From assembly GCA_026413805.1 (NCBI GenBank), contig JAOAKE010000002.1, positions 3,599 to 67,598 on the forward strand: DNA of 64,000 nucleotides, in the 5' to 3' direction. This DNA is from Candidatus Micrarchaeota archaeon. Lineage in GTDB: Archaea; Micrarchaeota; Micrarchaeia; Anstonellales; Anstonellaceae. This document shows positions 1 through 20,107 of the stretch, piece by piece (position 1 is the stretch's first letter; each line of letters begins with the position of its first letter). The notes beneath the pieces are model-generated. The model worked only from the letters and a program-made list of their open reading frames with translations, was not told the DNA's origin and made no database searches. The translations under genes and the position numbers were made by a program.

Positions 1-231
1 GTATTTGAGCACTCATCCTATTATTCGGAGTGGATGCAGCCGCTTATTTCAGGAGTGGTCGGGACATTCCATTCCCATCCAAATGGAGAGAAAACACCCT
101 CTAAGGCAGACAAGGAGCTTTTTTGGAAAAAAGGGGGAATAAACATGATAGCCGCTTATCCATATTCCTTGGATGATGTCGCCGCTTACCTCGGCGGCAG
201 AAAGATGGCCGAATTGAAGATAACAGATTGA
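1..231 (+). CDS. JAB/MPN (JAMM) metalloprotease domain protein, C-terminal fragment (5' end outside window)
   Basis: Frame 1 is open from base 1. The JAMM motif H-x-H-x7-S-x2-D is visible (FHSHPNGEKTPSKAD). Confidence 0.5.
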   Translation, partial: VFEHSSYYSEWMQPLISGVVGTFHSHPNGEKTPSKADKELFWKKGGINMIAAYPYSLDDVAAYLGGRKMAELKITD

Positions 232-286
232 ATTGCCTTTGTGTTTATTTAGTGGCAATAAATGGTCAAGAGGAAAAACGATCTAT

Positions 287-296
287 TTATAAATAT
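287..296 (+). promoter_or_regulatory. TATA-like box (TTTATAAATA) upstream of the 355 ORF, with a GGAGG-like SD at 344-351
   Basis: AT-rich archaeal promoter-like element about 60 nt upstream of the ATG. A purine-rich SD lies immediately before the start. Confidence 0.3.
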
Positions 297-354
297 TTGT
301 GGTAATAAAATAAAACAAGTGGTATAACTATAATAGTGTCCAGGGAGGGGTATA

Positions 355-2703
355 ATGGAAAATGAAGAAACTGCCCCCGAGGGGCAGGAAAAACAGGAAT
401 TGGGAAAGAACATCTACGATTACATTACTGAAAAGGAGCTTCGCCAGTACAGGAGCATGAATGCAGAGGAGCTTTTAGCCAAGCGAAGGTACTTTGAAGA
501 GGAGATTGAAAGGCTAGTGAAAGCAAGGAAAGAAGAACCAAGATATTACCTTGACCGAGATCGCGCCCGCCTTATTGAAGATTTTAAGAATAAGATGCAG
601 ATAATTGATTCCCTGCTTGCCCAGGCAGAAGCAGCCGATGCCGAGGAGCTTGACGCTGCTATTGTAGAAACCATCCAGAAGCACATTTCTTTGATTACCG
701 ATAAAATGAAGCAGAATGCAAAGGAGATAGAAGCCTTGCAGCTCGAGATAGAGCAGGCTCCCCAAGCAGCTAAAATAAAAGAGCAAGAGGAGGCCATAAA
801 GAAAAGGCAGAATAGGCTTGAAGCATGGGAAAAGGGATGGAAAGCAAAGCGGGAAGCTCTGAACAATGAGAAGGAAGAGCTCGAGGCTAAGCTTGAGAAG
901 CACCTTGCGTTCATCGCAAGGCTTGGCAAAAGAAAAATGCTTAGCGAGGATGAACTAATCGTAAAGCAAAATATTGAGGAGGAAGCAGAGGAAATAAAGG
1001 TGCAAATCGCCAAAGTTACTGCCAAAATAATCAAATTTGAAAAGAAAATAGAAGAAAAAACTCTTTCTTTAAACGAAGAGATAAGCAAGCTTGAAGCAGC
1101 GTTGTCCGCAATTAAGAAAGAAATAGAGAGCGAAGTAGCCAAAAAGAAAGAAAGGCTTCTCCAGCTGGAAGCTTTGAACGAAGAGCTCAATCGCCATCTT
1201 GAAGCAAAGGTGAGATTTCTACAAAGCCACGGGGTTGAAGTTGAAGAAACAAGCAAAGATGGTGCTAAAACAAGCAAAGATGGTGCTAAATTAATCCTTC
1301 CTAAAGAAGTTCCAAAAGAAGTCGAACCTAACCAAAAGGAGCCTAAATTACTCCCTCCCAAAAGAGTCCCAGAAGAAATTACGCCTGACCAAAAGGAGCC
1401 AGGCGAAACTGTCCCGACCAATAGCGCGGACCCGACTAGGGTAATTAGCGACTATGTTGCATTGCTTCGAGCAAAGGAAAAGTGGCGAAATCGCTTTAAG
1501 GGCAATTTCATGCGCAGAATTCTCTTAGTACGGAAGGACGATGCAGTTCTTGCAAACGAAAACCAGATTCGCCAAGACTTCCGAGAGCTTGTGCGAGAGA
1601 CTCTCAATGCTTCCCCCCAAAGAAATGCTGCCCTTAAATCAATCTACGAGGACATAGGAAATAGGCTGAACCGGGGAGACAACGTCACTAGCTTAGAAAA
1701 GACACTAAGGTGGCTGCGAAAGCCGGCAGTGGCAATCGGAAGGGTTGCGATAGGTGCCGGTCTAGTCGCTCTTGGCTCACTATCAGGAGGGGCAGTAGGA
1801 GTGGCAGCGATTGCCACAGGCGGCGTGCTAGGCGGAATCGGCCGCTTTGTTGGCGTAGATGCTGCATGGGATCGCATTCGGCATGCTTGGACTGGAAGGG
1901 AAAAGAACAAGCACGGGCTGGAATACGCAGCTTCTGCCCAAGTTTTCTACAACAATGTTTCTGGAGCTAAGCTAGAAGAACGCGTAAATGCAATTGGCAC
2001 AGAAAATGTTGAAGGCACTGCAAACAATGTAGACAACGCCTTCATAAAATACGCTGAGAACACAGGAAAGAACAGGATGTGGAAGAGGCTGGCTGCATTG
2101 GCAGCTGCATTCATTCCTCCAATTGCTCTGAAATACTTAGCTGGAGGAGAGGCGCATCCACAGGCAGGCACAGGCAAGGCAATACAACCCAGTGAAACTA
2201 ACGCCTCACCCAAGCCAGCAGCAAGCGAAGTTCAGCCACAGGCAGGCACAGGCAAGGTCATCCCACCAGAAAAGGCTACTGCTCCGCCCAAGCCCGCCTC
2301 TGAAGGCTTCACTGTTCCTGACAAAGGTGGCATTTGGCATATCAGCGAGCAGATCGCACAGAAGTACATACCTGAATTCAAGCACCTCCCATCTGCCGAT
2401 AAGAATGTCGTAGTTGATGCGATCAAAGACTACATAATCCAAGAAAAGGATAGGCTGTTTGAGCCACACGAGGTTATCCCCAGGCCGATTGAAAATGGCG
2501 GGCCATGGCTGAAGAAGGGAGCCGACATGGCCTTCAACAGAGAGGATCTATTAAAAGCAATAGAGAATGGGGTGCCAAAGAGGATTCGCGATATATTAGG
2601 CACAGACCTTAAGGGAGGCATTCCAAGGCCAAAGAGCCTCAGCAGTGACATTATAGGCAAAGGACACATAAAGGCAGGAAGGGTAGCAGCCGGCAGGGTA
2701 TAA
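355..2703 (+). CDS. large coiled-coil protein (782 aa) with Gly-rich putative membrane segment and low-complexity repeats; function unknown
   Basis: The N-terminal ~300 aa are strongly E/K/L-rich heptad-like sequence. A tandem TSKDGAK repeat is present. The segment AIGRVAIGAGLVALGSLSGGAVGVAAIATGGVLGGIG looks like a glycine-zipper transmembrane helix. A duplicated PQAGTGK(A/V)I.P motif follows. No recognisable catalytic motif. Confidence 0.6.
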   Translation: MENEETAPEGQEKQELGKNIYDYITEKELRQYRSMNAEELLAKRRYFEEEIERLVKARKEEPRYYLDRDRARLIEDFKNKMQIIDSLLAQAEAADAEELDAAIVETIQKHISLITDKMKQNAKEIEALQLEIEQAPQAAKIKEQEEAIKKRQNRLEAWEKGWKAKREALNNEKEELEAKLEKHLAFIARLGKRKMLSEDELIVKQNIEEEAEEIKVQIAKVTAKIIKFEKKIEEKTLSLNEEISKLEAALSAIKKEIESEVAKKKERLLQLEALNEELNRHLEAKVRFLQSHGVEVEETSKDGAKTSKDGAKLILPKEVPKEVEPNQKEPKLLPPKRVPEEITPDQKEPGETVPTNSADPTRVISDYVALLRAKEKWRNRFKGNFMRRILLVRKDDAVLANENQIRQDFRELVRETLNASPQRNAALKSIYEDIGNRLNRGDNVTSLEKTLRWLRKPAVAIGRVAIGAGLVALGSLSGGAVGVAAIATGGVLGGIGRFVGVDAAWDRIRHAWTGREKNKHGLEYAASAQVFYNNVSGAKLEERVNAIGTENVEGTANNVDNAFIKYAENTGKNRMWKRLAALAAAFIPPIALKYLAGGEAHPQAGTGKAIQPSETNASPKPAASEVQPQAGTGKVIPPEKATAPPKPASEGFTVPDKGGIWHISEQIAQKYIPEFKHLPSADKNVVVDAIKDYIIQEKDRLFEPHEVIPRPIENGGPWLKKGADMAFNREDLLKAIENGVPKRIRDILGTDLKGGIPRPKSLSSDIIGKGHIKAGRVAAGRV

Positions 2704-2783
2704 GGCAAGCCTCTTGAACTAACAGGCTGCCTGCCCTTTAGCATTTTTGCTTCAAGTGCTTATTTCCCTCCCTTGATGTCAAT

Positions 2784-3086
2784 TTATGGGTGCAGTGCAT
2801 TTTTCATTTTGACAACAAAAATATTTGCTTCCATCTCATCTGTGATTTTTTCAATCCACGAGTCAAGATATCTGTAAGGTGTTGGAAAATCCCTTTTTAT
2901 TTTTTCTACTTCTTCCTTGAACGCCTTTAAGATTCTTTCCTTCCCTTCAACAGTTCTTGCAGAAAAAAACTTTTTTTGGAGGCCATTGACTCTTGCCTCA
3001 ATTTGCAAGTATGTTGGCGAAATCAGCACCGCATCACAGCGTTTCCGTGCCTCTTTTGCTTTCATATCACATCCCCCGCCTTTCAT
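2784..3086 (-). CDS. hypothetical small protein (100 aa), last gene of the minus-strand cluster
   Basis: ORF overlaps the 3' end of the 1389-aa gene by 20 nt. It is charged and lysine-rich. Confidence 0.4.
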   Translation of the reverse strand: MKGGGCDMKAKEARKRCDAVLISPTYLQIEARVNGLQKKFFSARTVEGKERILKAFKEEVEKIKRDFPTPYRYLDSWIEKITDEMEANIFVVKMKNALHP

Positions 3087-6000
3087 ACATTATCCTTTCT
3101 ATCTCTTTTATTAGATTATCTGGGTCAACCTCAAACTCCATCCTTCTTTCCTCTATTGCCTTTGTGATGTAGGCCAGGGCCTCACCTGGCTTTTCAAAAC
3201 TGCATGCCTTTTTGAAGAAGCCCTCTCCGAACACACCATCTACCTTGGCCTCCAAAAGAGCATAGTCTCCGCTGAAATACGCCTCTCTAAATTCCTTCTC
3301 AGCATTCGCAGCCTTAACCATCCATATAGCTGCCTCTGAACCTATTTGGTGTTGCGGCGGTTTTCCTTCTTCAACAAAAGCCTTGACGTCCATCATCACA
3401 TCCCCTATCCACTTTGTCGGAGCATCAGCTACTGCAAGAGGGACTCCCAAGACTCGGTCAACAGTCTGGCGGCTGTCCTTGTTATAGTAAGTCCGTTCAG
3501 TTGGCATTGCGCGGATTATTTCTGCCATGGTTTCAACAAAAGGATCATTGAAGCCTATCCTTGCTTCCCCTACTACGAACTTTTTGGTCAATGGCTTCGC
3601 CCACGGGACCTCTTCGGCATCCCTGGTCCCAAGACAATCACTGACGTAATAAGAAACCTCAAAGTGGGCTGCTCGCCTCAGTATGTTTATATTATATGTG
3701 AAAGAGTGGTCGCTGCCATTTATGTATAGATTCCCATTGTTTTCAGTTACGCAGAATGGGTGGTCCCCTCTAACTTTGCGCAGGTGGGGTATAAGCTCCT
3801 TGTATTCGGCACTCTGGACATTAGTGCAAACAACAGAGTTTCTCTCAACCTGTTTCTTCAAATCATATGCAAAGAGCATTTGCGGGAGCATAATATTCTG
3901 GATATTTGAAAGGAGATGGCCCATGTCTCCAGTCGTTTTTGCATTTTTGAGAACATTCTTTAAGATAATAGAGATAAGCGCAAGGTCGCCAGTTATTCTA
4001 CTTGGAGCAAGGAGGTCGGCAGCGAGCCCTGCGTATTCTTCTCTCAGGGGCGCCATGTTCTTTTCGCTTTTCGTTATTATTGAAGAAGCTTCAAGCAAGT
4101 CTCTTTCCATCTCATCAATTTTCTTCATCTTTTCTTCGGTCTCAAATTTGTTTAGGACTTTTCTCATGTAGCTGCAGATACTTTTTATATATCCATCCAT
4201 GGCCTCTTTGATGCTGGCAGGGTCGCTTTTCCCCATTGCCTCTTCCAATTTCTGCCTGGCAGAATTCATCTCCCAAGTCATCTCCTCCGAGAAGTAGTCT
4301 TTCTGCAGCTCTACAACAGGCCGAGTCTGGAACCTTTTAGAATACTGCGCTACTGACCGCATCAGCGAGAGCCTGGCAATGAGAGCTCCATCGTGTTTTT
4401 CTTTAGTTTGGCCAACCAATTCTTTTTCAATATTCTTTTCAATTAGCTTAATCGCCTCTTTTAGCTCGAGATAGGCCAATCCCTTTGCCTTGAGCCTTTC
4501 ATAAATTGTAAAGGGCACTTCTATGGGCAGCGCCTTATTCTTAAGAAATTCTGCTGCAAATGTTGTCCCATTATCCAGGTCAAATCTCGCTATCTCTTCT
4601 ATATATGGGTAATAGTAGTCAAGGGCCGTTCGCCTTTCTGCTATTTTTTTCGCAATTGCATTAGTTATCCATTCAACTGCGATTAGCTCTGGTCTTGATG
4701 TCAATATGAGCTCGTCCAACCTTTTTCCGCCATCCACATTGCACAGCCGCAGTATCAGCTTGTTTTTAGTTGGGAAAGTGGACCAAATTTCGTTTAGAGC
4801 ATCCTCCCCAATATTCGGGTTTTCCTTAGCAATGCTCAACTCCGTCTTGGCCACTTCCATCTTCAATCTCCACCCGACATCGCGCCCAGAGCGGATAGAG
4901 CGGATTTCCATCAAGTCAGATTGGGTAAATGGGTAGCCCCCCTCAGCAAGTTTCCTTATCAGCCTTAGCAGATGTGGCTCTTTTTTTGCCGCTTCAAAAA
5001 GCTTCTTTTTTAGCCCCACATCCACCCAATCTCTAACTTCATGGCCACTAAGAGTTAGCATCCCTTCCAATTCAAAATAAGTTTTCTTGTTTCCGCCCAT
5101 CCATTCATCAAGGAGGTTTAGGAATCGTTTGCGCTTGCCAGTCAACTCCAAAAGTTCATCAGGAGTCTTTGTGGAAATTTGGGGAAGGAACAGCACTAAT
5201 TCCTCAATCGTCATCTTGCCAAGGAGGTCTACGCTTCGTAGGCACCTTGACTTTATCTCTTCAAAAGGGGTGCTAGGGAAAGCTTTCAGATACAGCTGTA
5301 CAAGTTCTTTGGCGATCATTCCCGCTATGCTATTTGAGTGCTTAGAGAGGGCAGCAACAACCCCCTCGTTCCCAAGTATGTCTAGGATTTCAATTACCCG
5401 GCCATCTTCTAGGAAAGAGAAGCAGACTTCATCCACAAGGCTAACAAGGCTTAGGTTATTTTTGTTCTTTTCAAAAACGCCCTTTGCTAGTCTTGCTATC
5501 TCTTGGTTGCGCCCCAAGGCTATCCTTTCTACTGTTTCTGCAGCATACTCCCAGTCCTCTTTGATTCTGGGCCTGCTATCAGGTGCTTCAACGATTTCAG
5601 GGCGTCTTTCTTTTATTGGTTGTGCGCTTGAAATGATCGATTCGTAACCTCTTTTTATCATTTCGCTTTTTATATGGTCTAAAACTTGCGGGGAGGACTT
5701 CTCAAGGGCGGCATAGTAAAGCTCTCTTAGGAACTTCTCTCTGCTCTCTTTTGACATTTCCTCAGCACCCTTTATCAGTTTTCCTATTTCTTCTACTAAG
5801 GCCGGTTCCTCACCTCGCTTTGAAGACTCTTCTAGCCGATTCAAGAAGAAATCAAAAAACGATTTCATCATGACTTGTGCGCCTTTTTCATCCATCGCTT
5901 TGGCGTACTTTTCCTGCGCAGGAGAAAGCCTTGGCTTTCCAGTTACTTCGCCCGGCTTGATTTTTAGGCCGGTTACTCCCTTTGAAACAATCCGAGGCAG

Positions 6001-7236
6001 GCCCAAAAGGCCCCCACTTACAAGCAGGTTAGTGACATCATCAGGGCTCAATCCATATTTTTCAGCATTCAGTGATAGGTAAGTGCCGCTTGTCCCAACC
6101 TCAATCAGGAGGAACTTGCCAGCTAATGAACTGATGCCCATGCCTGCCTTTCCAACTGCAGCAAGAGCCGCGCCGCTAGATTCGATGGCAGACATGCCAG
6201 CGGTTTGCCCTATAAAACTAAGCATTCTGCCAGCAGCTTTGACATAAGCAAAAAATGGGGCTGCCATGGTAGCCGCCATAAGAGCCCCATGGACCTTGTC
6301 CTCCCAGCTGCTCTCTTTTTTGAAAGAGTCCATTACATCCTTTCCAAAATAAAGATAGCCTGCAAGCTGGGTTGGGGGGTAGGCTAATGCAGCCACTGCA
6401 AGCAGAGTCGGAGCCGCGGTCACAAGAGGCTCTGCAGCATGATATACCTTGTCGCCGATGCCTTTGGCTTCCCTTACTTTTTTTCGATATAGGAAGCTTG
6501 AAAGCTGTTTTTGCTCAAATTGCAAATAAGCATTGTTGAATCTTTCAAGTGATTTGCGGTAATTTGCAACCTCTTCGGCAAATCTTGCGTTGCTGCTCCA
6601 CCTAATTTGTGGAAGATTGGACGGGAGGAGGGAAGCATATTCTCTTTCAAGCTGCTTATTCGTGCTGCTGATGTACTCCATCTTGCCATTTATTTTATCT
6701 TGCATGCTGTAGAGGTTGAAGAGTTTTGAATACGCAAGGTAAGTGTTGGCATCTCTCAGGACGTTAAACCTGCTTTGGCAGTCAGGCATCTTGCCAAACT
6801 GGGCTCCCCACAATATGTAAGGAGTAAAGCGGCTGAGCAAATAGCTTGCAAGGGCATTGGCCGCCTTGGCAAATTCTTCAGGATCTTTGAGCGCTTTTGA
6901 TACTCTTTCCAATCTTTTTATGGTCAGCTCAACTTCGGAATATTGCTTTTCAAATGTTGACAACTGCAAGCTGTTCAATACTGCTTTGGCGTTGGCGTAG
7001 CCCATCCTCTCAAGCAAAGCAACCTGCTCTTCTGCGCTTTTCGCCTCATTTATAAGACCTATTAGCTCCCTTTCGCATTTTTTTGCAAGAAGCAGCTTGT
7101 CCCACGCCCCCTTGAATGTAGGGTCAAATAAATGCTCTTCTCTCACTTCTCTTTCTTCAGGGGGCTCTCTTCTGCCTACAACCTTGACCTCAACCTCCTT
7201 AGAGAATGACTGGAATAAAAGCACCATGGGGTGCAC
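3067..7236 (-). CDS. giant hypothetical protein (1389 aa), no recognisable domain
   Basis: Uninterrupted 4.17-kb ORF. There is an internal hydrophobic/Ala-Gly-rich stretch (PFFAYVKAAGRMLSFIGQTAGMSAIESSGAALAAVGKAGMGISSLAGKF). It sits immediately downstream of the beta-helix/vWA/MoxR genes with small intergenic gaps. Confidence 0.65.
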   Translation of the reverse strand: MHPMVLLFQSFSKEVEVKVVGRREPPEEREVREEHLFDPTFKGAWDKLLLAKKCERELIGLINEAKSAEEQVALLERMGYANAKAVLNSLQLSTFEKQYSEVELTIKRLERVSKALKDPEEFAKAANALASYLLSRFTPYILWGAQFGKMPDCQSRFNVLRDANTYLAYSKLFNLYSMQDKINGKMEYISSTNKQLEREYASLLPSNLPQIRWSSNARFAEEVANYRKSLERFNNAYLQFEQKQLSSFLYRKKVREAKGIGDKVYHAAEPLVTAAPTLLAVAALAYPPTQLAGYLYFGKDVMDSFKKESSWEDKVHGALMAATMAAPFFAYVKAAGRMLSFIGQTAGMSAIESSGAALAAVGKAGMGISSLAGKFLLIEVGTSGTYLSLNAEKYGLSPDDVTNLLVSGGLLGLPRIVSKGVTGLKIKPGEVTGKPRLSPAQEKYAKAMDEKGAQVMMKSFFDFFLNRLEESSKRGEEPALVEEIGKLIKGAEEMSKESREKFLRELYYAALEKSSPQVLDHIKSEMIKRGYESIISSAQPIKERRPEIVEAPDSRPRIKEDWEYAAETVERIALGRNQEIARLAKGVFEKNKNNLSLVSLVDEVCFSFLEDGRVIEILDILGNEGVVAALSKHSNSIAGMIAKELVQLYLKAFPSTPFEEIKSRCLRSVDLLGKMTIEELVLFLPQISTKTPDELLELTGKRKRFLNLLDEWMGGNKKTYFELEGMLTLSGHEVRDWVDVGLKKKLFEAAKKEPHLLRLIRKLAEGGYPFTQSDLMEIRSIRSGRDVGWRLKMEVAKTELSIAKENPNIGEDALNEIWSTFPTKNKLILRLCNVDGGKRLDELILTSRPELIAVEWITNAIAKKIAERRTALDYYYPYIEEIARFDLDNGTTFAAEFLKNKALPIEVPFTIYERLKAKGLAYLELKEAIKLIEKNIEKELVGQTKEKHDGALIARLSLMRSVAQYSKRFQTRPVVELQKDYFSEEMTWEMNSARQKLEEAMGKSDPASIKEAMDGYIKSICSYMRKVLNKFETEEKMKKIDEMERDLLEASSIITKSEKNMAPLREEYAGLAADLLAPSRITGDLALISIILKNVLKNAKTTGDMGHLLSNIQNIMLPQMLFAYDLKKQVERNSVVCTNVQSAEYKELIPHLRKVRGDHPFCVTENNGNLYINGSDHSFTYNINILRRAAHFEVSYYVSDCLGTRDAEEVPWAKPLTKKFVVGEARIGFNDPFVETMAEIIRAMPTERTYYNKDSRQTVDRVLGVPLAVADAPTKWIGDVMMDVKAFVEEGKPPQHQIGSEAAIWMVKAANAEKEFREAYFSGDYALLEAKVDGVFGEGFFKKACSFEKPGEALAYITKAIEERRMEFEVDPDNLIKEIERIMYERRGM

Positions 7237-7318
7237 CTAATACAGATAGTTAGCCCCCGCACATTATTATTTCTTCTTCTATTTCCCTGCGCACCTAAAA
7301 GGAGCATGCCGTTTTGGC

Positions 7319-8260
7319 TTACCTAAAGATTATCTCGCCGCTTAATTTTTTATATCCAGTATAATGGCGGCTTTTCCCTCCTAAAAATATCGTTGCTCCT
7401 TGCAGTTCAAAGCCAGTGTAGTCTCGCACATCCCCAAATACGTGGATTTTGCCTCCGCTTGCGCGATAGCCCGTATAGTCCATTGCGTTTTTCAGCACAA
7501 AGATTTCCCCTCCTTTCATTTCGCACCCTACCCAGTTCCTTGCGTTCCCAACGACATTTAGCACCCCGCCCTCCATTTTTTCACCGCCGAAGTCCAGCAC
7601 GTCTCCAATGACGCTCACTTGCCCGCCAACCATCTGCGAGCCAGTGAAATTCCCACAGCTTCCTTCAACTACGAACCTTCCACAGACCATGCCCTTTGCG
7701 CTGTAGTCTCCTAAGTTGCCTTTGACCACGACATCCTTTTTGTTCCGGCATCCAAGGTAATTTATCCTCACATCAAGATGCCTCAAGCTTATTATGAACT
7801 CGTCGTCTTTGCAAGCGTTGATTAAATCCGAAAGGAATAGGCCCGCCCTATCGCTAAAATTCTTTTCGTGCTGGTATTTCCTCAGCAGCAAGACAAACTC
7901 GGCTATGTCAGCAGCTCCATAACCAGTGCGCGCTATGCTCTCGAGCAGGAGTTGGGCATGGGTTTTTGGCATGTGGTCTTTGCGTGGCACAGCCGTATAG
8001 TGGAAAGTGGAAAACAGGTCAGCAAAAAAGTCAGATGCAAATCCTTTCATCGGGGATTCAGCAGGGGCATAGTAGTCTTTCAGCTGCATTACTTTCAAGA
8101 ACGCCCTTTCCATCTCCCCTGCCTTTAAGCTATTTGTAGAAATGCCTTTGGCTTCTTCTAAGATTGGCGGCTGTGGGACAAACTTTCCAAGGAGCAAGCG
8201 CCCATTCCCATCTGGCAATAATTGCATTCTCCCATTCAAGTTCTTCTTAAATGACTGCAC
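7319..8260 (-). CDS. GXGXG-motif beta-helix protein (glutamate synthase C-terminal domain / FwdC-like fold) with unique N-terminal domain
   Basis: The C-terminal 150 aa show repeated G-x-G-x-x-G/V turns (GDYSAKGMVCGRFVVEGSCGNFTGSQMVGGQVSVIGDVLDFGGEKMEGGVLNVVGNARNWVGCEMKGGEIFV...). This is characteristic of the GXGXG right-handed beta-helix. Confidence 0.6.
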   Translation of the reverse strand: MQSFKKNLNGRMQLLPDGNGRLLLGKFVPQPPILEEAKGISTNSLKAGEMERAFLKVMQLKDYYAPAESPMKGFASDFFADLFSTFHYTAVPRKDHMPKTHAQLLLESIARTGYGAADIAEFVLLLRKYQHEKNFSDRAGLFLSDLINACKDDEFIISLRHLDVRINYLGCRNKKDVVVKGNLGDYSAKGMVCGRFVVEGSCGNFTGSQMVGGQVSVIGDVLDFGGEKMEGGVLNVVGNARNWVGCEMKGGEIFVLKNAMDYTGYRASGGKIHVFGDVRDYTGFELQGATIFLGGKSRHYTGYKKLSGEIIFR

Positions 8261-8269
8261 TTTCTCATC

Positions 8270-10174
8270 CTACCGTTTCCCCTTTGCAAGCTGCTGCCTC
8301 ATCCCTTTTTCTGCCTCTTGAATGATTATCCTTGCGCCTTCTGAAATGTCCTTGACAGAGTGATAGACCGTCAGCTTTCCAGAAGTTTCAATCCCCACCT
8401 CCCATGCAGGGGCGCTTGTTATGACCGCTACGCTGTTGGCTTCCTTTAGCTCTTCAAGCAGCTCAAGCATCTTGCGCTTGTTGTGAATTTTCATGTCGCT
8501 TACCAAATACACATGCAGGTCCTTCTCAGAGAAGTTTTCTGAAAGCCCGTTGCCTATTGCAGCCTCTTGCGCATGCTTTTTTGCAAACACCACATTCTCC
8601 AAAAGGCTTTGCAAATTGCCGCTGTTAAATGGGGCCTCTAATCGGGCCTGCATCCCAGAATTCTTTTTGAGCATCAGCCGCCCCATTGCAGTGTCTATCA
8701 AAGTGCCACCGCCCTGATACGCCAATATTGCGGCGCAGGCAAGGCGAAGGTCACAGGTGTATGGCAGGCAGTATGTTTTAGAGCCGAAGTTGATTACTCC
8801 TACTTTGCCGCCAAGCTGGATGGTCGTTTTGGCAATTCCAACCGCAATTGCAGCAAGCACAGAAGTTGACTTCTCAGGGTCGCCCATAGTCAGGCTGGCA
8901 TCCTGTATTATCAGGGAATTTTCAGGGGCATAATCAGTCTTGCGGAAAACCCTTGGGGCCTCGCCAACCATCATGGTGATGCCGGGCAAAACCTTTCCGC
9001 CAGAAGTCTCTGGCAAGGCCCTTTCCATCGGGTTGCCAAGGAAGAACCTATCAGTTCCGCTCATTCTTTTTTGCTCCGCGAGAATCTCTTTGGCGGGCTT
9101 GCCAGCCACTGCAGGATAGTTTTCAATAAGCTTCAAGTAATATTCAACAGTCTGCCTCTTTACCCAAAGCCCACCGCCAGAAGTCCCTGCGCCAAGGAAA
9201 GGGTTCATGAGCTCGCCTTTGCCTTCTCCCCCTTCAATTTCAATCCCTGCCCTTTTTGTTATCCTTTCAAGTTCCTCTTTTGAGGCAAAAGGCGCAATTT
9301 TTGAGAGGGCAATGTCAATGTCTGCGCGCCTGGCCTTTCGTATCATCTCGGTTGCGTCGCTGTCAATAGGTTCCATCTTTCCTTCATAGGCCTCTCCCAA
9401 GGAAAATCTGCCCTTGCCGATTCCAAATGACCTTGAAAAGTAACGCTCTCCCCAGAAGTTTCGCATCACCTCTAAGAACACCACTGCTGCATTTTCAAGT
9501 GCCCTAGGCTCAAACGGGGCATTCTTAAAGTCAATGCAAAATAGCCTTTCCAAGAAAGGCGCATGCTCTTTTTCAGAGGCTCCAGTTTCCCCCGCTTGCT
9601 TTTCAAGATAAGCAAGAATGAGGCTTGCAAACTCATCCTTGCTTGCTATTGCCTCTGCTTTGCGGAGGCATAAGACAAACCTGCTTCTTTGAGGGCAAAT
9701 GGCATTGTTTGCATCGTTTATCAAGCGCGAGAGCTTGCGGAAGGCAGCCTCTGCAAAGGCGATGCCATGCGAGTCCCCAGCATTCTCGTGTATATAGTGC
9801 TGCAAAAGCATGATATTTTGGTAGTTCCTTGGAAAGTTCATATACGATCCAATCACCCCTGTCATCATGCCAGCAAGCACTAAGTCAAGGTCAATGCCGC
9901 TGTTTTGGGAGAGGCGGAATGCAAATGCAGGGTCAATATATGGCCTGCCCGAGGCAAAGTCAAAGTGCATCCCACTGAAAGGAAAAGGGGGCTTTTCAAG
10001 CGCAGGATCTTTTATGACTGGAAGGTGGAATGTTGCCCTGCATTCCTCCCAAATCTTCAATGCCTTTTCCTTTGGGACAAGGGTTGCTTGCTCCAGCAGG
10101 GGTTCACTTTCAGTCTTGCCAGCCTTTCTATTTGTTTTGGAATATTGGGCAAGGAGGCTCCTGTTGCGCAGCAT
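8270..10174 (-). CDS. von Willebrand factor A (vWA) domain protein with long N-terminal region
   Basis: The C-terminal ~200 aa carry a MIDAS-like DxSxT motif (IQDASLTMGD). The hydrophobic core is typical of vWA (VLAAIAVGIA...VGVINFGSKTY...YQGGGT). It lies 11 nt downstream of the MoxR ATPase gene. Confidence 0.65.
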   Translation of the reverse strand: MLRNRSLLAQYSKTNRKAGKTESEPLLEQATLVPKEKALKIWEECRATFHLPVIKDPALEKPPFPFSGMHFDFASGRPYIDPAFAFRLSQNSGIDLDLVLAGMMTGVIGSYMNFPRNYQNIMLLQHYIHENAGDSHGIAFAEAAFRKLSRLINDANNAICPQRSRFVLCLRKAEAIASKDEFASLILAYLEKQAGETGASEKEHAPFLERLFCIDFKNAPFEPRALENAAVVFLEVMRNFWGERYFSRSFGIGKGRFSLGEAYEGKMEPIDSDATEMIRKARRADIDIALSKIAPFASKEELERITKRAGIEIEGGEGKGELMNPFLGAGTSGGGLWVKRQTVEYYLKLIENYPAVAGKPAKEILAEQKRMSGTDRFFLGNPMERALPETSGGKVLPGITMMVGEAPRVFRKTDYAPENSLIIQDASLTMGDPEKSTSVLAAIAVGIAKTTIQLGGKVGVINFGSKTYCLPYTCDLRLACAAILAYQGGGTLIDTAMGRLMLKKNSGMQARLEAPFNSGNLQSLLENVVFAKKHAQEAAIGNGLSENFSEKDLHVYLVSDMKIHNKRKMLELLEELKEANSVAVITSAPAWEVGIETSGKLTVYHSVKDISEGARIIIQEAEKGMRQQLAKGKR

Positions 10175-10185
10175 CTCATCTACCC

Positions 10186-11658
10186 TTACATTGGCAGGCT
10201 GTCCTCCATTATCTTCCCGTAGAATTCAGCTATTTTGACCTCGTTTTGAACCCTTCGTATTATTGCCTTGGCGGCAGGATGGTCGTAGTCTGACTCTCTC
10301 AGCGACTTTATCCTTTCTATGTCCCCACTTTCTTCAGCCTCCGATATTGCTGCAAGCAGCTTCTTGAGGGACGGAGCGGCCTTGTGGTAGTTTTCAAATA
10401 GCCTGTCTGCAAGCCTTTCTGCAAGATAAATGGGTAATGCATCTTTTCTCGCGTCGTTAATGTGCTTTTGCTTGAATTCCTCGGAAAATTCCATCTTATG
10501 CGCGAGGGCGTGCGGCAAAATATTGCGGATGTCCTTTGTATCTACATGGTCTCTGCCAGCAAGCCACGCCAGGCCTTTTGCATAGAAAACAACGTCATGA
10601 GAGCGGACGCTGAAGTTGTCCTTTACAAGAATGCCAACGTAGTTTCGGTCATGGGCGTCAGTGCTTATCCCATCCTCTGCCCTTTTCACCCCATATTTTT
10701 CAGACCAGTTTATTTCAGCCTCAAGGGCAGATATTATCAGCTGCGGGTCGTTTATTGCAATCTTCCCGTTATTCCCTTCTTTTACATATGCAAGGGGGAT
10801 GGCCTCGATTTCCCTAACAGCTTCTCTTCGCTCATCATCAGTCAGGGGCTCTACTGATTTTAGCAGGTTTGCCCTGTCGGAAATAAATCGCTTGAACTCC
10901 CCTACTGGGTCCTGCCTTGAATCATCAACCAATATCTGAAGCGCCTTTTCTGAAATTTGTGGATTGGAAAGGCGCATTGCAACAAGCTTCTCAGCGTTTT
11001 CGTAGCTCAAGCAGGCGATTGAGTTGTCCATTCCCGAGTATTTGGCTTCAAGCACAAGGGAGAAGCGGTCTTTCAGCTCCCTGGTCAGGGCAAGGGACCC
11101 ATCTTCCCCAAAATTCGCAGTTGCATTAGTCGGCCTGTTTCCAATGTGTTTGCTATAGAATGAGTATTCAGCCACTCCATACTCTATCATCTTGTAAAAG
11201 AGCACTTGGTCTTCTTTTGGCAGCTGTGCTATTTCATCTATGTTCAGCACAGGCACTGCGATTGCGCCTCCCCACACTACCCTCTCCTTCCCATCTTTGT
11301 TCATGCTGCCAAAGTGCAGCCTTGCAAACATTGTCTCTGGCCGCTGGTGGGGATGCCCATTAATCATGGTCGCTTCAAAAATCTCTATCGGTATCCCGGT
11401 GTATAGCGAAGAAAAAACGAGCATCTCACGGGTTTTCCCAGTTCCCCTTCCGCCAACAGAGATTATCGCATCCCCCCTTAGGAAGCTCAGGGCTCTAAGA
11501 GAGGAGTTTAGCGGAAGCGGGATTTTTTCATCAATCTTGTCAGTCAGCGGCTCTGCGGGATGCAGGGCCATGCCATGCACTATCTTTCGGATTACCTTCT
11601 CCCTTACCTTGCTATTTTGTGTATTTTGTGTTTGCTGTGGCTTTTCGGCGCATTGCAT
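10186..11658 (-). CDS. MoxR-family AAA+ ATPase (CbbQ/NorQ/GvpN-like)
   Basis: Walker A GGRGTGKT, Walker B-like VLNIDEI and an arginine-rich sensor region are present. The layout is the classic MoxR-vWA gene pair. Confidence 0.7.
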   Translation of the reverse strand: MQCAEKPQQTQNTQNSKVREKVIRKIVHGMALHPAEPLTDKIDEKIPLPLNSSLRALSFLRGDAIISVGGRGTGKTREMLVFSSLYTGIPIEIFEATMINGHPHQRPETMFARLHFGSMNKDGKERVVWGGAIAVPVLNIDEIAQLPKEDQVLFYKMIEYGVAEYSFYSKHIGNRPTNATANFGEDGSLALTRELKDRFSLVLEAKYSGMDNSIACLSYENAEKLVAMRLSNPQISEKALQILVDDSRQDPVGEFKRFISDRANLLKSVEPLTDDERREAVREIEAIPLAYVKEGNNGKIAINDPQLIISALEAEINWSEKYGVKRAEDGISTDAHDRNYVGILVKDNFSVRSHDVVFYAKGLAWLAGRDHVDTKDIRNILPHALAHKMEFSEEFKQKHINDARKDALPIYLAERLADRLFENYHKAAPSLKKLLAAISEAEESGDIERIKSLRESDYDHPAAKAIIRRVQNEVKIAEFYGKIMEDSLPM

Positions 11659-11717
11659 ACGACCTATCCCCCACCTTAGTTTTCACTAAGCGCTAATCAT
11701 CTTGCGCCCCTTGCAGC

Positions 11718-12437
11718 TTACTCTTTCTCTTGCCCTTTTCCTTCTGATGGCTGTTTTCCAAGGACTGCATTGACAGCGTGCTTTACTTCAAGGACTGCCC
11801 ACTTAACCGCGGCATTTCCAAAGGCAGCCACGCTTGCAAGTGATGCCCCTACTGCCAAGGGAGCTGCGGGCGAGCCCGAAACAATGGTCGCTACTGCTGC
11901 TGTGCCAGTGGCAACCACCGCGGCCCCGGACAGGGGCAGCACCTTCTTTTTCATAGAGCCTATGGCATTCCTGCTTTCATCGTTTAGTTTCCCCACAACA
12001 GCGGCGATGGGCGCAGCTTCAAATTTTTCTCCCAAGACGTCCTTTGCCATCCAAACCGCGTCTGATGCTTTCAGCAAATTATCTGTTTTTTTAAGCGGGC
12101 CCGAACCCCCTGCCCTGTTAACGACAAAATCGGCGCTTTCAATGAGTGCCAGTCCAAACTCCTTGCGCACCCTTTCAAACCTCTCCATTTCGTGGCGCAT
12201 CATCTTGTTTTGCTCATGCCCTTGCGAGGCAGGGAGCCCACCCATCACCATAAGGGATACGTCCCTCTCTTTTTTGTATTTAGCCCATTTTATAGCCACG
12301 TCTTTTTCCATCTGTGCTGGAAGATTCAGGCTGGCTAAAAACCTCTTCATCTCCTTGTCCTTCATCATTGCTGGATTTGGCTTGGCATTTGCTAACCTCA
12401 TATTATCTAACCTCCCTGGTGCCTTTTTTCTTTTCAT
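11718..12437 (-). CDS. hypothetical protein with Ala/Gly-rich C-terminal segment, first gene of the minus-strand cluster
   Basis: 239-aa ORF 59 nt upstream of the MoxR gene. The C-terminus LSGAAVVATGTAAVATIVSGSPAAPLAVGASLASVAAFG is a possible membrane or fibrous segment. Confidence 0.45.
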   Translation of the reverse strand: MKRKKAPGRLDNMRLANAKPNPAMMKDKEMKRFLASLNLPAQMEKDVAIKWAKYKKERDVSLMVMGGLPASQGHEQNKMMRHEMERFERVRKEFGLALIESADFVVNRAGGSGPLKKTDNLLKASDAVWMAKDVLGEKFEAAPIAAVVGKLNDESRNAIGSMKKKVLPLSGAAVVATGTAAVATIVSGSPAAPLAVGASLASVAAFGNAAVKWAVLEVKHAVNAVLGKQPSEGKGQEKE

Positions 12438-12513
12438 GCGGCTGTTTATTCCCGAGTAGAAATGCTTTTAAAACAAACGCGAGTCGCAGCTATGCTTTGG
12501 CAGGTTGGGCACA

Positions 12514-12528
12514 ATCTTTTATAAACTT
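12514..12528 (+). promoter_or_regulatory. TATA box (TTTTATAAA) of the rpoH-rpoB-rpoA operon in a divergent intergenic region
   Basis: AT-rich box about 45 nt upstream of the rpoH start. The intergenic region is shared with the oppositely oriented cluster. Confidence 0.3.
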
Positions 12529-12569
12529 TTTCTTGCTAATAACCCCCTACTGTCCCGATTAAGTTAGGT

Positions 12570-12800
12570 GTGGCTTTGCCCGAGCGTCAACCCCCATCAC
12601 ATGAATTGATACCTCAGCATAGGCTATTGAAAAAAGAAGAAGCCGAGAAAGTTTTGGCAGAGTTTAAAGTTTCAGCCCTGCAGATTCCAAAAATAAAGGC
12701 AAAAGACGCGGCTCTTATAGGCACCGGGGCAAAGGCGGGGCAGATAGTTGAGATTACAAGAAGCGATGGCTCGCGAAACTACAGGCTAGTAGTTGATTAG
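12570..12800 (+). CDS. rpoH: DNA-directed RNA polymerase subunit H (Rpb5 homolog)
   Basis: HELIPQHRLL..EEAEKVL...LPKIKAKD.ALIGTGAKAGQIVEITR.S...NYRLVV matches the RpoH family. It likely uses a GTG start. Confidence 0.85.
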   Translation: MALPERQPPSHELIPQHRLLKKEEAEKVLAEFKVSALQIPKIKAKDAALIGTGAKAGQIVEITRSDGSRNYRLVVD

Positions 12801-12808
12801 CCCAGCCC

Positions 12809-14302
12809 TTGCAAGGAAGTGATGTTTCAATGCGCGGAGAGCTCCTCACAGCATATTTCAAGGAAAACAGCCTGGTAAAGCAGCACCTCGACTCTTACAA
12901 CAAGTTCGTAGAACACGGCTTGCAAAGCATAGTAAATAGGGTGGGCGTGATCCAGCCATCGGTTGAGGGCTTTGAGCTGCGATTCGGGCAGATACGGCTT
13001 GAAAAGCCAAAGATAATAGAGGCTGACGGCTCGCAGCGGCCGATTTACCCCTCTGAGGCAAGGCTTCGCAACCTCACTTATGCTGCCCCTATTTTTCTTG
13101 AAATAATCCCTGTTTTTAACGGAGTTGAAAAGACAATCTTTTCAGAAGTCTTCATAGGCGAGCTTCCAGTAATGGTCAAGTCCAAGCTGTGCTACCTTGA
13201 CAACATGAGCGAAGAGGAGCTAATTGAGGCAGGCGAAGACCCCGCAGACCCTGGCGGCTATTTTATAATAAATGGCTCTGAGCGAGTCCTAACTTCAATA
13301 GAAGACCTTGCCCCAAACAGGATAATGTGCACGCGCGAAAAAGAAAACATGCTCGTCACTGCCAAGGTATTCTCCACACGCTTTGGGTTTCGCGCGAGGT
13401 GCGTTGTGGAGCGAACCAATGAAGGCTTCATGAGGGTGGTTTTCCCGGCTTCTCCAAAGGACCTGCCCCTGACAACAACCCTCCGCGCCTTGGGGCTTGA
13501 AAAGAAAGAGCAAATCCTCTCTGCCTTTTCACAAGAGAAGCACATACGAAATGACATTTTGCTCAATCTTGAGCTGGACACCACCAACAACAAGGAAAGC
13601 GCAATGGAATTCCTGGGCAAAAAGGCCGCCCCTGGCCAGGCGCAGGATTACCGCGAAAAGCGGGCTGAAATTCTTCTTGACACCTACCTTCTTCCACACA
13701 TAGGCACCACCCCTGAGGACAGGCTCAAAAAGGCGCATTACCTTTGCAAAATGGCAGAGCACGCAATAAGGGTGGCACACAGGGAGATACCCCAAGATGA
13801 CAAGGACCACTATGCAAACAAGAGAATCAAGCTGGCAGGGGACTTAATGGAAGACCTTTTCCGCTATGCCTTCCAGTTTTTGGTGAAAGACGTTGCATAC
13901 CAAGCAGGGAGGGCAGATGCCCGCGGAAGGCACTTGGCAGTGCAGACTCTTGTCCGCCCAGACGCGCTTTCCGACAGGATACGCTACTCAATGGCAACAG
14001 GAAACTGGATAGCCGGGCAGACAGGCGTTTCGCAGCTTCTTGACCGAACCAGCTTCCTTTCTTCTACCTCGCATCTTCGCCGCATCATTTCTCCCCTTTC
14101 AAGAAAGCACCCGCACTTCAAGGCACGCGACCTGCATGGCACTCACTGGGGGAAGCTCTGCCCAAATGAGTCGCCCGAAGGGCCATCGTGCGCCCTTGTA
14201 AAGAACATGTCGCTGCTTTGCGAGATTTCCATTGGCGAAGACGAACGCACCATAGAAGAGATGGTCAACAAGCTTGGGGTAAAGATGAGCCCAATAAGGT
14301 AA
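12809..14302 (+). CDS. rpoB2: RNA polymerase subunit B'' (N-terminal half of split RpoB)
   Basis: The N-terminal conserved RpoB regions and its position between rpoH and rpoB' support the call. The stop lies 6 nt before the rpoB' ATG. Confidence 0.9.
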   Translation: MQGSDVSMRGELLTAYFKENSLVKQHLDSYNKFVEHGLQSIVNRVGVIQPSVEGFELRFGQIRLEKPKIIEADGSQRPIYPSEARLRNLTYAAPIFLEIIPVFNGVEKTIFSEVFIGELPVMVKSKLCYLDNMSEEELIEAGEDPADPGGYFIINGSERVLTSIEDLAPNRIMCTREKENMLVTAKVFSTRFGFRARCVVERTNEGFMRVVFPASPKDLPLTTTLRALGLEKKEQILSAFSQEKHIRNDILLNLELDTTNNKESAMEFLGKKAAPGQAQDYREKRAEILLDTYLLPHIGTTPEDRLKKAHYLCKMAEHAIRVAHREIPQDDKDHYANKRIKLAGDLMEDLFRYAFQFLVKDVAYQAGRADARGRHLAVQTLVRPDALSDRIRYSMATGNWIAGQTGVSQLLDRTSFLSSTSHLRRIISPLSRKHPHFKARDLHGTHWGKLCPNESPEGPSCALVKNMSLLCEISIGEDERTIEEMVNKLGVKMSPIR

Positions 14303-14307
14303 TTCTT

Positions 14308-16182: not shown

Positions 16183-16196
16183 TTTGCGCTGATGGT

Positions 16197-18752: not shown

Positions 18753-18764
18753 GGAGGTTATGGC

Positions 18765-20107
<1,343 letters not shown>

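Follow-up and report, generated by a model that had tools for sequence, protein, structure and literature searches.

Few AAA+ machines are as poorly understood as the MoxR-vWA pairs, for which no more than a handful of clients is known. In the characterised pairs a hexameric ATPase binds one vWA adaptor and remodels either the adaptor or a target. In NorQD, for example, a finger from the vWA domain is inserted into the AAA+ pore, and the linker that joins the N-domain of NorD to its vWA domain is twisted by the ATPase (PMC13036017). Here we describe a gene cluster with such a pair from a Candidatus Micrarchaeota archaeon (GenBank assembly GCA_026413805.1, contig JAOAKE010000002.1). The stretch of DNA that was analysed, called the window below, is 64,000 nucleotides (nt) long; the cluster lies on its minus strand and runs from position 12437 to 2784. 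MoxR-vWA chaperone pairs as such are already known. What is new is the dead zincin domain in the adaptor of this pair, together with the large unannotated family of which this adaptor is a member.

Several described systems are close to this locus. Iyer et al. (2021) reported pairs of MoxR and a metallopeptidase-vWA protein in jumbo phages, for which they proposed chaperone-assisted assembly and proteolytic processing of virion proteins; they also cite a MoxR-vWA pair of the Acidianus two-tailed virus (ATV) that is needed for tail growth (PMC7824862). The ternary systems of Kaur et al. (2020) have a third component with VMAP, iSTAND, FtsH or a beta-propeller, carry effectors C-terminal to the vWA domain and are enriched in multicellular bacteria (PMC7159879). 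Midasin/Rea1, with its AAA_5-type ring and C-terminal metal-ion-dependent adhesion site (MIDAS), is a single giant eukaryotic ribosome-biogenesis polypeptide, whereas the window encodes separate small proteins; the relationship between them is at the level of the fold only, with 13-14% identity. A metallopeptidase followed by a vWA domain is also the architecture of Pfam DUF2201_N/DUF2201.

The locus shares its core with the MoxR/vWA pairs NorQ-NorD, CbbQ-CbbO, RavA-ViaA, CoxD-CoxE and BatA/B. A MoxR-class AAA+ protein with intact motifs adjoins a partner whose vWA domain is C-terminal and whose MIDAS is complete, and the vWA domains of NorD and BatB are among the top structural matches of this partner. 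As in NorD, the adaptor has two domains, the N-domain and the vWA domain, joined by a linker (PMC13036017). Unlike in these pairs, the N-domain of the window adaptor is a zincin (peptidase) fold that appears inactivated, and the conserved third gene encodes a GXGXG beta-helix protein instead of a metalloenzyme. The ATPase also differs from theirs by an INWSE insert of about 60-130 residues and a C-terminal extension, and the window proteins stay under the Pfam thresholds for AAA_5, AAA_3 and VWA. The jumbo-phage pair (group 2.2) has the same domain order and a MoxR neighbour (PMC7824862), but no sequence relationship was detected when one relative of the adaptor (P0005) was searched by tblastn against 50,697 phage records. 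The window family is cellular, occurring in archaea and bacteria, and its peptidase is predicted to be dead in the window clade.

Gene content and conservation of the locus

The cluster comprises six open reading frames (ORFs), given here with the domains assigned to them.

11718..12437, minus strand: small protein, 239 residues; first gene of the module, putative membrane anchor
10186..11658, minus strand: MoxR-type (AAA_5-like) AAA+ ATPase, 490 residues; assigned from AAA_lid_2, motifs and orthologue profiles
8270..10174, minus strand: two-domain adaptor, 634 residues; predicted zincin-like pseudo-peptidase, linker and beta-hairpin region, C-terminal vWA/MIDAS
9455..10087, minus strand: predicted zincin-fold domain at the adaptor N-terminus, residues ~30-240, active site destroyed
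8300..8923, minus strand: predicted vWA domain at the adaptor C-terminus, residues ~418-625, complete MIDAS
7319..8260, minus strand: GXGXG right-handed beta-helix protein, 313 residues; Pfam GXGXG, conserved N-domain in residues 1-172
7325-7744, minus strand: beta-helix part of that protein, residues ~173-312, GXGXG repeats
3067..7236, minus strand: giant ORFan, 1389 residues; outside the conserved module, matches itself only
2784..3086, minus strand: ORFan of 100 residues; shares 20 nt with the 3' end of the giant gene, outside the conserved module

All six ORFs run in one direction and lie where an earlier, sequence-only reading of this DNA had placed them. The gaps of 9 to 82 nt given in that reading hold from the first to the fifth gene (59, 11, 9 and 82 nt), but the fifth and sixth genes share 20 nt. 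Also as described before, the cluster and the core rpo region run in divergent directions; a split rpoB gene starts at 12809. In a Candidatus Micrarchaeota metagenome-assembled genome (MAG), N3G22_00595, N3G22_00590 and N3G22_00580 have the same sequences as the AAA+, vWA and giant proteins, respectively.

Four of the genes recur elsewhere. Five other Micrarchaeota loci (L001 to L005) contain, in the same order, genes for a small transmembrane (TM) protein of 219-270 residues, an AAA+ protein of 461-483 residues, a vWA protein of 618-656 residues and a GXGXG protein of 279-338 residues. A single relative of the AAA+ protein (P0002, 40% identity) was found in a word-indexed set of 5.8 billion proteins, and a scan of the GTDB species genomes gave four further relatives, all from Micrarchaeota. 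A metagenome scan for AAA+ relatives returned only a duplicate of L004. Because the giant protein and the 100-residue protein have no homologue in L001 to L005 (tblastn), the conserved unit is four genes and not the six-gene system that had been proposed. Outside these four genes the five loci carry unrelated or opposite-strand genes. The neighbours of the module in these small DPANN genomes include housekeeping genes, namely rpoB in the window and A-type ATP synthase in L001, where an asparaginyl-tRNA synthetase gene is also present. Since the order of the core is kept in six divergent Micrarchaeota genomes amid housekeeping genes, the module looks vertically inherited, unlike a defence island.

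The first gene of the module encodes a protein with a soluble helical N-terminal part, followed by two Ala/Gly-rich hydrophobic helices at the C-terminus (residues 169-187 and 193-211). It has no family match in Pfam, NCBIfam or PADLOC. A gene whose product (219-270 residues) ends in two such hydrophobic helices lies directly upstream of the AAA+ gene in all six Micrarchaeota loci, and the window protein aligns with its counterpart in L001 with a pairwise E value of 2e-6.

The catalytic set of the ATPase is complete. It includes Walker A (GGRGTGKT, G69-T76; nt 11431-11454), Walker B (D141-E142), sensor 1 (N182), the Arg finger (R198) and, in the lid, sensor 2 (R352), and this full set is invariant in eight orthologues. 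In Pfam the window protein matches AAA_lid_2 only (E 1.3e-6). Its orthologues match AAA_lid_2 (5/6), AAA_5 (5/6; 3.5e-6) and AAA_3 (4/6; 1e-3), one of them matches bpMoxR weakly (E 0.008), and precomputed AAA_5 matches exist for the orthologues in L010, L013, L018 and L020. The profile of eight orthologues found 2r44_A as its top match in the PDB (E 1.7e-7), ahead of Lon, ChlI and RuvB; we take 2r44 to be the MoxR-family ATPase of Cytophaga hutchinsonii. Searches of PDB sequences with the window proteins or with six-member profiles were uninformative, and matches came from the broader profiles alone. Relative to 2r44 the family has a specific insert between core and lid (residues ~205-345, about 60-130 residues long, in which the INWSE motif is invariant) and, at the C-terminus, an extension that carries a DHP motif. 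Together, these data support the MoxR-type assignment made from sequence before; AAA_lid_2 was found on the window protein itself, and the step to MoxR needed the orthologue profiles. The vWA gene begins 11 nt downstream of the ATPase gene, and the same adjacency occurs in 10 other loci.

The GXGXG call was also upheld. The protein matches Pfam GXGXG (PF01493) with 33.3 bits against a cut-off of 32.5, and the match is found in all six orthologues (best E 1.2e-12). Its beta-helix part belongs to the same repeat family as FwdC and the C-terminal domain of glutamate synthase: residues 173-312 match TIGR03122 (FwdC) with an E value of 5e-23. However, this score (81.6 bits) is under the cut-off of 130.65, as is that for NF042910 (71.3 bits; cut-off 340), and no fwd genes occur in the window or the related loci, so that the protein does not belong to the FwdC equivalog; GltB genes are likewise missing nearby. 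Unlike these proteins it has a distinct conserved N-terminal domain of 170 residues. This domain had been called unique, but it is conserved in the orthologues, with the motif DIxEF..L.KYQ.EKNFxNRAGLFLSxL.N.C.D. The N-terminal motif of the beta-helix proteins of the window clade has L23, F27 and Q30 as invariant residues.

The zincin-vWA adaptor and its family

The sequence of the window adaptor has no match in Pfam, NCBIfam or the PDB. Its orthologues in L001 to L005 are 29-38% identical. Foldseek with an AlphaFold2 model (predicted local distance difference test score 70) returned vWA domains only, and the predicted C-terminal domain has the Rossmann-like vWA fold. The MIDAS consists of D425-A-S427-L-T429 (nt 8888-8902), T491 (in GGT) and D560 (in SDMKI), with Thr in place of the usual third Ser; D425, S427, T491 and D560 are invariant across 105 sequences. 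The vWA identity that had been proposed for this protein is confirmed by the MIDAS motif together with the structure model. The domain is C-terminal and ends about 10 residues before the stop. In the model it contains a low-confidence insert (residues 505-547), and the linker comprises residues 244-322.

The N-terminal domain had been overlooked in the earlier reading. It has the elements of a zincin fold, i.e. a mixed beta-sheet, an active-site helix and a following third-ligand helix. A profile of the six orthologues recruited relatives that have HExxGH exactly where the window adaptor has T105-G-V-I-G-S110 (nt 9845-9859). Of 105 aligned relatives, 84 have HExxH. The alignment also shows an invariant Pro five residues downstream of this motif and, some 40 residues downstream, a nearly invariant Asp; in place of this Asp the window adaptor has R150. 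Since TGVIGS occupies the HExxH position and Arg replaces the near-invariant Asp, the window protein is, as judged from its sequence, a pseudo-peptidase and not an active zincin. In a neighbour-joining tree the window clade and the sister group formed by P0007 and P0022, none of which has HExxH, nest inside an HExxH-bearing clade, which argues that the pseudo-peptidase descends from active ancestors. The same tree indicates that the Archaeoglobi lost HExxH independently.

The family to which this adaptor belongs is large. An exhaustive HMMER search found 808 cluster representatives in archaea and bacteria, 242 of them with E<=1e-30, and most of the 150 representatives listed match nearly the full length of the profile. 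Among 81 relatives, 54 match Pfam VWA_2, two match DUF2201 (PF09967) at 3e-4 and none matches DUF2201_N (PF13203); the window adaptor matches neither PF09967 nor PF13203. Thus the family has the architecture of DUF2201_N/DUF2201, but its Pfam matches do not place it there. No Pfam model covers the N-domain, and NCBIfam has no name for the family.

The gene neighbourhoods of about 14 loci were covered. In addition to L001 to L005, the following are relevant.

L009, probably bacterial: AAA+ (431 bits), dead-zincin-vWA and GXGXG (141 bits); the contig carries SecA
L007 (6927-9136) and L016 (3150-5298), Archaeoglobi MAGs: dead-zincin-vWA (460-465 residues) and GXGXG, no adjacent AAA+
L014, Micrarchaeota, HExxH intact: vWA, a 264-residue protein and GXGXG (147 bits)
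L018, 608-12764 (GCA_041643055.1, JBGGHI010000397.1), HExxH intact: nine paralogues of the 264-residue protein around AAA_5 and vWA, GXGXG at the end
L010, 2837-12248: AAA_5, HExxH-vWA, four acidic paralogues (389, 318, 330 and 379 residues) and a classical AAA protein (420 residues)
L013, 157-7508: AAA_5, HExxH-vWA, unknown proteins of 149 and 331 residues, ThiF/E1-like (597 residues) and Prok-JAB (347 residues)
L020: AAA_5, a 182-residue gene product, HExxH-vWA and gene products of 165 and 107 residues

An AAA_5 ATPase is adjacent to the adaptor gene in every non-Archaeoglobi locus with a readable upstream side, and across the wider family AAA_5 or AAA+ adjacency is seen in L009, L010, L013, L018 and L020. 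Downstream of the vWA gene, orthologues of the GXGXG protein were found in L001 to L005, L009, L014, L018, L007 and L016. The protein thus co-occurs with the adaptor in four lineages, with all six loci of the Micrarchaeota clade, two more loci from Micrarchaeota, a probable bacterium and Archaeoglobi represented; L009 is taken as bacterial because its contig carries SecA, which is the sole basis for this assignment. The idea that GXGXG occurs only where HExxH has been lost is refuted by L014 and L018, which combine an intact HExxH with a GXGXG partner. Among the papers that were searched, none mentions MoxR together with GXGXG.

These neighbourhoods bear on the proposal that the beta-helix and giant proteins act as third components of the MoxR-vWA pair. 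The GXGXG protein does co-occur with the pair and recurs across the neighbourhoods of MoxR/vWA homologues, whereas the giant never does; it and the 100-residue protein are absent from every related locus. No RuBisCO, nitric oxide reductase or gas vesicle partner adjoins the full module.

The genes after the pair encode partner proteins that vary across the family, and in several loci the partners in one operon share an N-terminal segment. The proteins of 226 and 264 residues in L014 are 61% identical over residues 5-48 (E 3e-10), the GXGXG protein of L018 resembles one of the paralogues over residues 1-73 (E 1e-7), and the partner proteins of 182 and 165 residues in L020 are similar to each other (E 6e-5). 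The N-termini of the four L010 paralogues are similar by eye, unscored. Because operon partners share this segment even where the rest of the protein differs, it suggests a recognition or processing handle. The N-terminal motif of GXGXG in the window clade corresponds to the L014/L018 handle by position only, in MAFFT and HMM alignments.

A number of candidates and minor features were noted in the same loci. The small TM protein was examined as kin of the client paralogues of about 250 residues, with negative results by both hmmsearch and hhalign. The nine L018 paralogues (247-276 residues, 35-54% identity) begin with RF.GFKP..EG, end with (F/L)GVAL(I/V) and have no family matches; a HEPN + MNT toxin-antitoxin pair is inserted on the opposite strand of this locus. 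A metallo-beta-lactamase/Apyc1-like gene lies upstream in L010. L013 may tie the MoxR-vWA family to ubiquitin-like conjugation. On the contig of P0008 an unannotated gene for 449 residues is directly upstream of the HExxH-vWA gene. The Archaeoglobi pair adjoins PhoU_div, PHO4 and CofC in both L007 and L016.

A mobile or viral origin was considered and rejected, as no plasmid, viral-contig or phage copies were found for the relatives tested (P0006, P0005 and alignment A5). An uncultured phage of 595 kb (LR756511.1; L017, 5857-6927) has an AAA+ ORF that is 30% identical to the AAA_5 core of L010 (E 1e-7); the 12.5-kb stretch around it contains no member of the zincin-vWA family.

Proposed function and alternative explanations

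On balance we lean towards the view that the locus is a four-gene Micrarchaeota module, which represents a degenerate branch of the large unannotated MoxR + zincin-vWA family and works as an ATP-driven chaperone-adaptor machine on a beta-helix client. The observed part of this view is which genes are present, which domains they encode, the state of their motifs, their conservation and their nested position in the tree; that the proteins form a complex, which protein is the client, that the machine is tethered to the membrane and which way remodelling runs are drawn from analogy. By comparison with NorQ-NorD, CbbQ-CbbO, RavA-ViaA and midasin, an ATPase hexamer would dock one adaptor via the vWA domain. 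The adaptor would grip its client by the MIDAS metal site and the former peptidase cleft, and ATP hydrolysis would pull or twist the adaptor linker, such that the client is remodelled, assembled or released. The insert at residues 505-547 and the linker at residues 244-322 are candidate equivalents of the NorD finger and the NorD linker, respectively. In modules of the window type the recurrent client may be the GXGXG protein, and the upstream protein with two TM helices may tether the machine to the membrane. In relatives with an intact HExxH the same machine probably also cleaves its clients. In the window version proteolysis appears to be lost, and therefore this adaptor could only bind and remodel.

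A more general proposal goes further and is in our opinion possible, albeit doubtful. It states that at least 808 clusters represent a widespread undescribed system, in which the machine recognises, and in active versions cleaves, operon-specific N-terminal segments that its clients share, with the GXGXG protein as one recurrent client, and that the Micrarchaeota branch is protease-dead and membrane-anchored. If this is true, an important structural role, possibly at the envelope or in host contact, would be implied, because the machine is kept in highly reduced genomes in spite of the lost protease activity; the giant orphan could then be a lineage-specific addition to such a role. In any case the locus exposes a sizeable branch of MoxR-vWA pairs in which the adaptor has a protease-type domain and the likely clients are encoded in cis. 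Since some of these clients share N-terminal segments, their recognition is directly testable. The DPANN pseudo-protease and its protease-intact relatives offer a natural comparison that can separate a chaperone role from a processing role.

Several points weigh against the view that we favour. The link among the four proteins is one of adjacency and co-conservation alone. The MoxR class of the ATPase comes from motifs and profiles and not from the structural hallmarks of clade 7, which are the helix-2 insert and the pre-sensor-1 hairpin, and both the AAA+ and the vWA protein of the window are below the Pfam thresholds for AAA_5, AAA_3 and VWA. The small TM protein is confined to the Micrarchaeota clade, where its members can barely be aligned. 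Archaeoglobi keep the dead-zincin-vWA and GXGXG genes without an adjacent AAA+ gene, and for this reason the ATPase may be dispensable or encoded elsewhere. Finally, the match between the window GXGXG motif and the client leader of L014 and L018 is tentative, because a leave-one-clade-out position-specific scoring matrix (PSSM) was not significant (shuffle fractions 0.05-1.0) and hence gave no support for homology.

The module could instead build an envelope or host-contact structure specific to these episymbiotic archaea. According to this explanation, which is rather unlikely, the AAA+ and vWA proteins would control the beta-helix protein as it polymerises or serves as a scaffold at the membrane, and in this genome the giant, with its TM stretch, would be an added, lineage-specific surface client. 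The MoxR-vWA pair p618/p892 of ATV, which drives growth of the tail filament, is a parallel, and it gives MoxR-vWA pairs a precedent in filament and virion assembly (PMC7824862). A membrane hairpin protein heads the operon in 6/6 loci. The giant, the small protein and a neighbouring ORF of 782 residues all have Ala/Gly-rich hydrophobic stretches, and the giant gene follows in the same direction, coupled to the 100-residue ORF. Large lineage-specific surface proteins are, moreover, common in DPANN archaea. Yet none of the proteins has a signal peptide or a match to a surface domain, the N-terminus of the giant does not fit the N-terminal motif of the clients, and polymerisation of the beta-helix is a conjecture. 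The complete triad is present in a probable bacterium and the pair, minus AAA+, in free-living Archaeoglobi, so that a role specific to DPANN cannot be ancestral. The module might also be a chaperone that matures an enzyme encoded elsewhere by inserting a cofactor or metal, with the beta-helix protein as a scaffold subunit like FwdC or the C-domain of glutamate synthase. This is the role of most characterised MoxR-vWA pairs (PMC13036017, PMC9976466), with precedents in NorQ/NorD for NOR, CoxD/CoxE for CO dehydrogenase, CbbQ/CbbO for RuBisCO, and ChlI/ChlD or CobS/CobT for chelatases. The vWA domain of NorD is among the structural matches, GXGXG is otherwise known as a structural subunit of metalloenzyme complexes (cf. 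the TIGR03122 match), and an AAA+ protein, a vWA protein and a protein of more than 1300 residues superficially recall ChlI/ChlD/ChlH. The analogy to the class I Mg/Co chelatases (ChlI-ChlD-ChlH, CobS-CobT-CobN) fails, because the giant is not CobN/ChlH-like; it has no match to CobN/ChlH or to anything else and is not conserved. No candidate target enzyme adjoins the full module in about 12 loci. The sole RuBisCO_large gene seen is about 4 kb upstream on the opposite strand in the Archaeoglobus locus L007, whose sister locus L016 lacks it. Ancestrally, the N-domain is a zincin of the peptidase type, unlike in NorD, CbbO or CoxE, and Micrarchaeota have a very reduced metabolism. Altogether we consider a maturation role unlikely.

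The sequence-only reading had favoured another explanation, in which all six genes belong to one ternary NTP-dependent system of the MoxR-vWA kind that serves conflict or defence, with the beta-helix and giant proteins as variable sensor or effector. The locus does share with the ternary systems of Kaur et al. a MoxR and vWA core plus a conserved third protein; a MoxR-like AAA+ gene adjoins the vWA gene, further proteins follow downstream, and one orthologue has the weak bpMoxR match (E 0.008). Distant relatives lie near conflict-type genes, namely ThiF/E1 and JAB in L013 and HEPN-MNT with the array of nine paralogues in L018, and the giant is a fast-evolving ORFan in a stretch of lower GC. 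However, the six proteins and their neighbours contain no VMAP, iSTAND, FtsH or beta-propeller; the third component is the GXGXG protein. A zincin lies N-terminal to the vWA domain, which has no effector fused on its C-terminal side. None of the six proteins has a match in PADLOC-DB (E<=0.1), and the relatives tested have no plasmid, phage or viral-contig copies. The giant and the 100-residue protein are missing from all related loci, while the order of the four-gene core is kept among housekeeping genes in the six divergent Micrarchaeota genomes. The host is a DPANN archaeon, and the published systems are concentrated in multicellular bacteria (PMC7159879). With defining components, PADLOC matches and mobile copies all absent in the searches made, we regard a ternary conflict system as very improbable, and a MoxR-vWA cluster with large ORFan neighbours should not be given this label by default.

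The orphan genes and the flanking sequence

The giant and the 100-residue genes are lineage-specific and not demonstrably part of the system. The giant had been described as an orphan without a recognisable domain, and this is borne out in the strict sense: among 5.8 billion proteins it matches only itself, and Pfam, NCBIfam, PADLOC, PHROG and the PDB give no match. It has neither internal repeats nor paralogues. No giant gene was called beside the module in the loci L007, L009, L010, L013, L016, L018 and L020, which were examined later. The likely start of the gene is the ATG at 7227, which yields a protein of 1386 residues as in the NCBI record. This protein is mostly helical and charged, with one Ala/Gly-rich hydrophobic stretch (residues ~267-420). 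As a ChlH/CobN-like third chelatase subunit it was rejected, since no CobN-Mg_chel or other Pfam/NCBIfam match (E<=0.1) and no homologue was found. The N-terminus of the giant, MVLLFQSFSKEVEV, was also rejected as a client leader; its PSSM score was -2.4, and several unrelated ORFs of the window scored better. The 100-residue protein likewise has no homologue and only a weak PHROG match (E 0.0034), and its gene is probably translationally coupled to the giant gene.

Upstream of the first gene there is a candidate promoter, read from the sequence by its resemblance to the consensus.

12516..12530, minus strand: archaeal B recognition element (BRE)/TATA-like element AAAAGTTTATAAAAG, upstream of the 239-residue gene

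The element AAAAGTTTATAAAAG lies in the region divergent from rpoB and is a putative promoter of the operon. The giant gene could have a promoter of its own, because the 82-nt gap 5' of it contains the A/T-rich sequence GAAATAATAATG (7261-7272) and AGGTG is found 6 nt before the ATG at 7227. On the other side of the divergent region, RNA polymerase subunit B (12809-16182, plus strand) is encoded by two ORFs, which cover Rpb2 domains 1-3 and 4-7, respectively, and which overlap as listed at 14188-14302. A split rpoB occurs in some archaeal lineages.

The GC content is 0.43-0.47 over positions 1-7000, which include the 782-residue ORF and the giant gene, versus 0.48-0.52 over positions 7300-20000 with the conserved module and the rpo genes. 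The lower values are compatible with a compositionally distinct, lineage-specific segment. The 782-residue ORF (355-2703, plus strand) converges on the end of the cluster, and tblastn found no homologue of it in L001 to L005. The N-terminal half of its product is a coiled-coil, with weak matches to SMC/LmuB-type coiled-coils only. It further contains a duplicated PQAGTGK.I.P segment and a Gly/Ala-rich hydrophobic patch at residues ~458-500; such Ala/Gly-rich hydrophobic stretches are alike in this protein, the giant and the small 239-residue protein.

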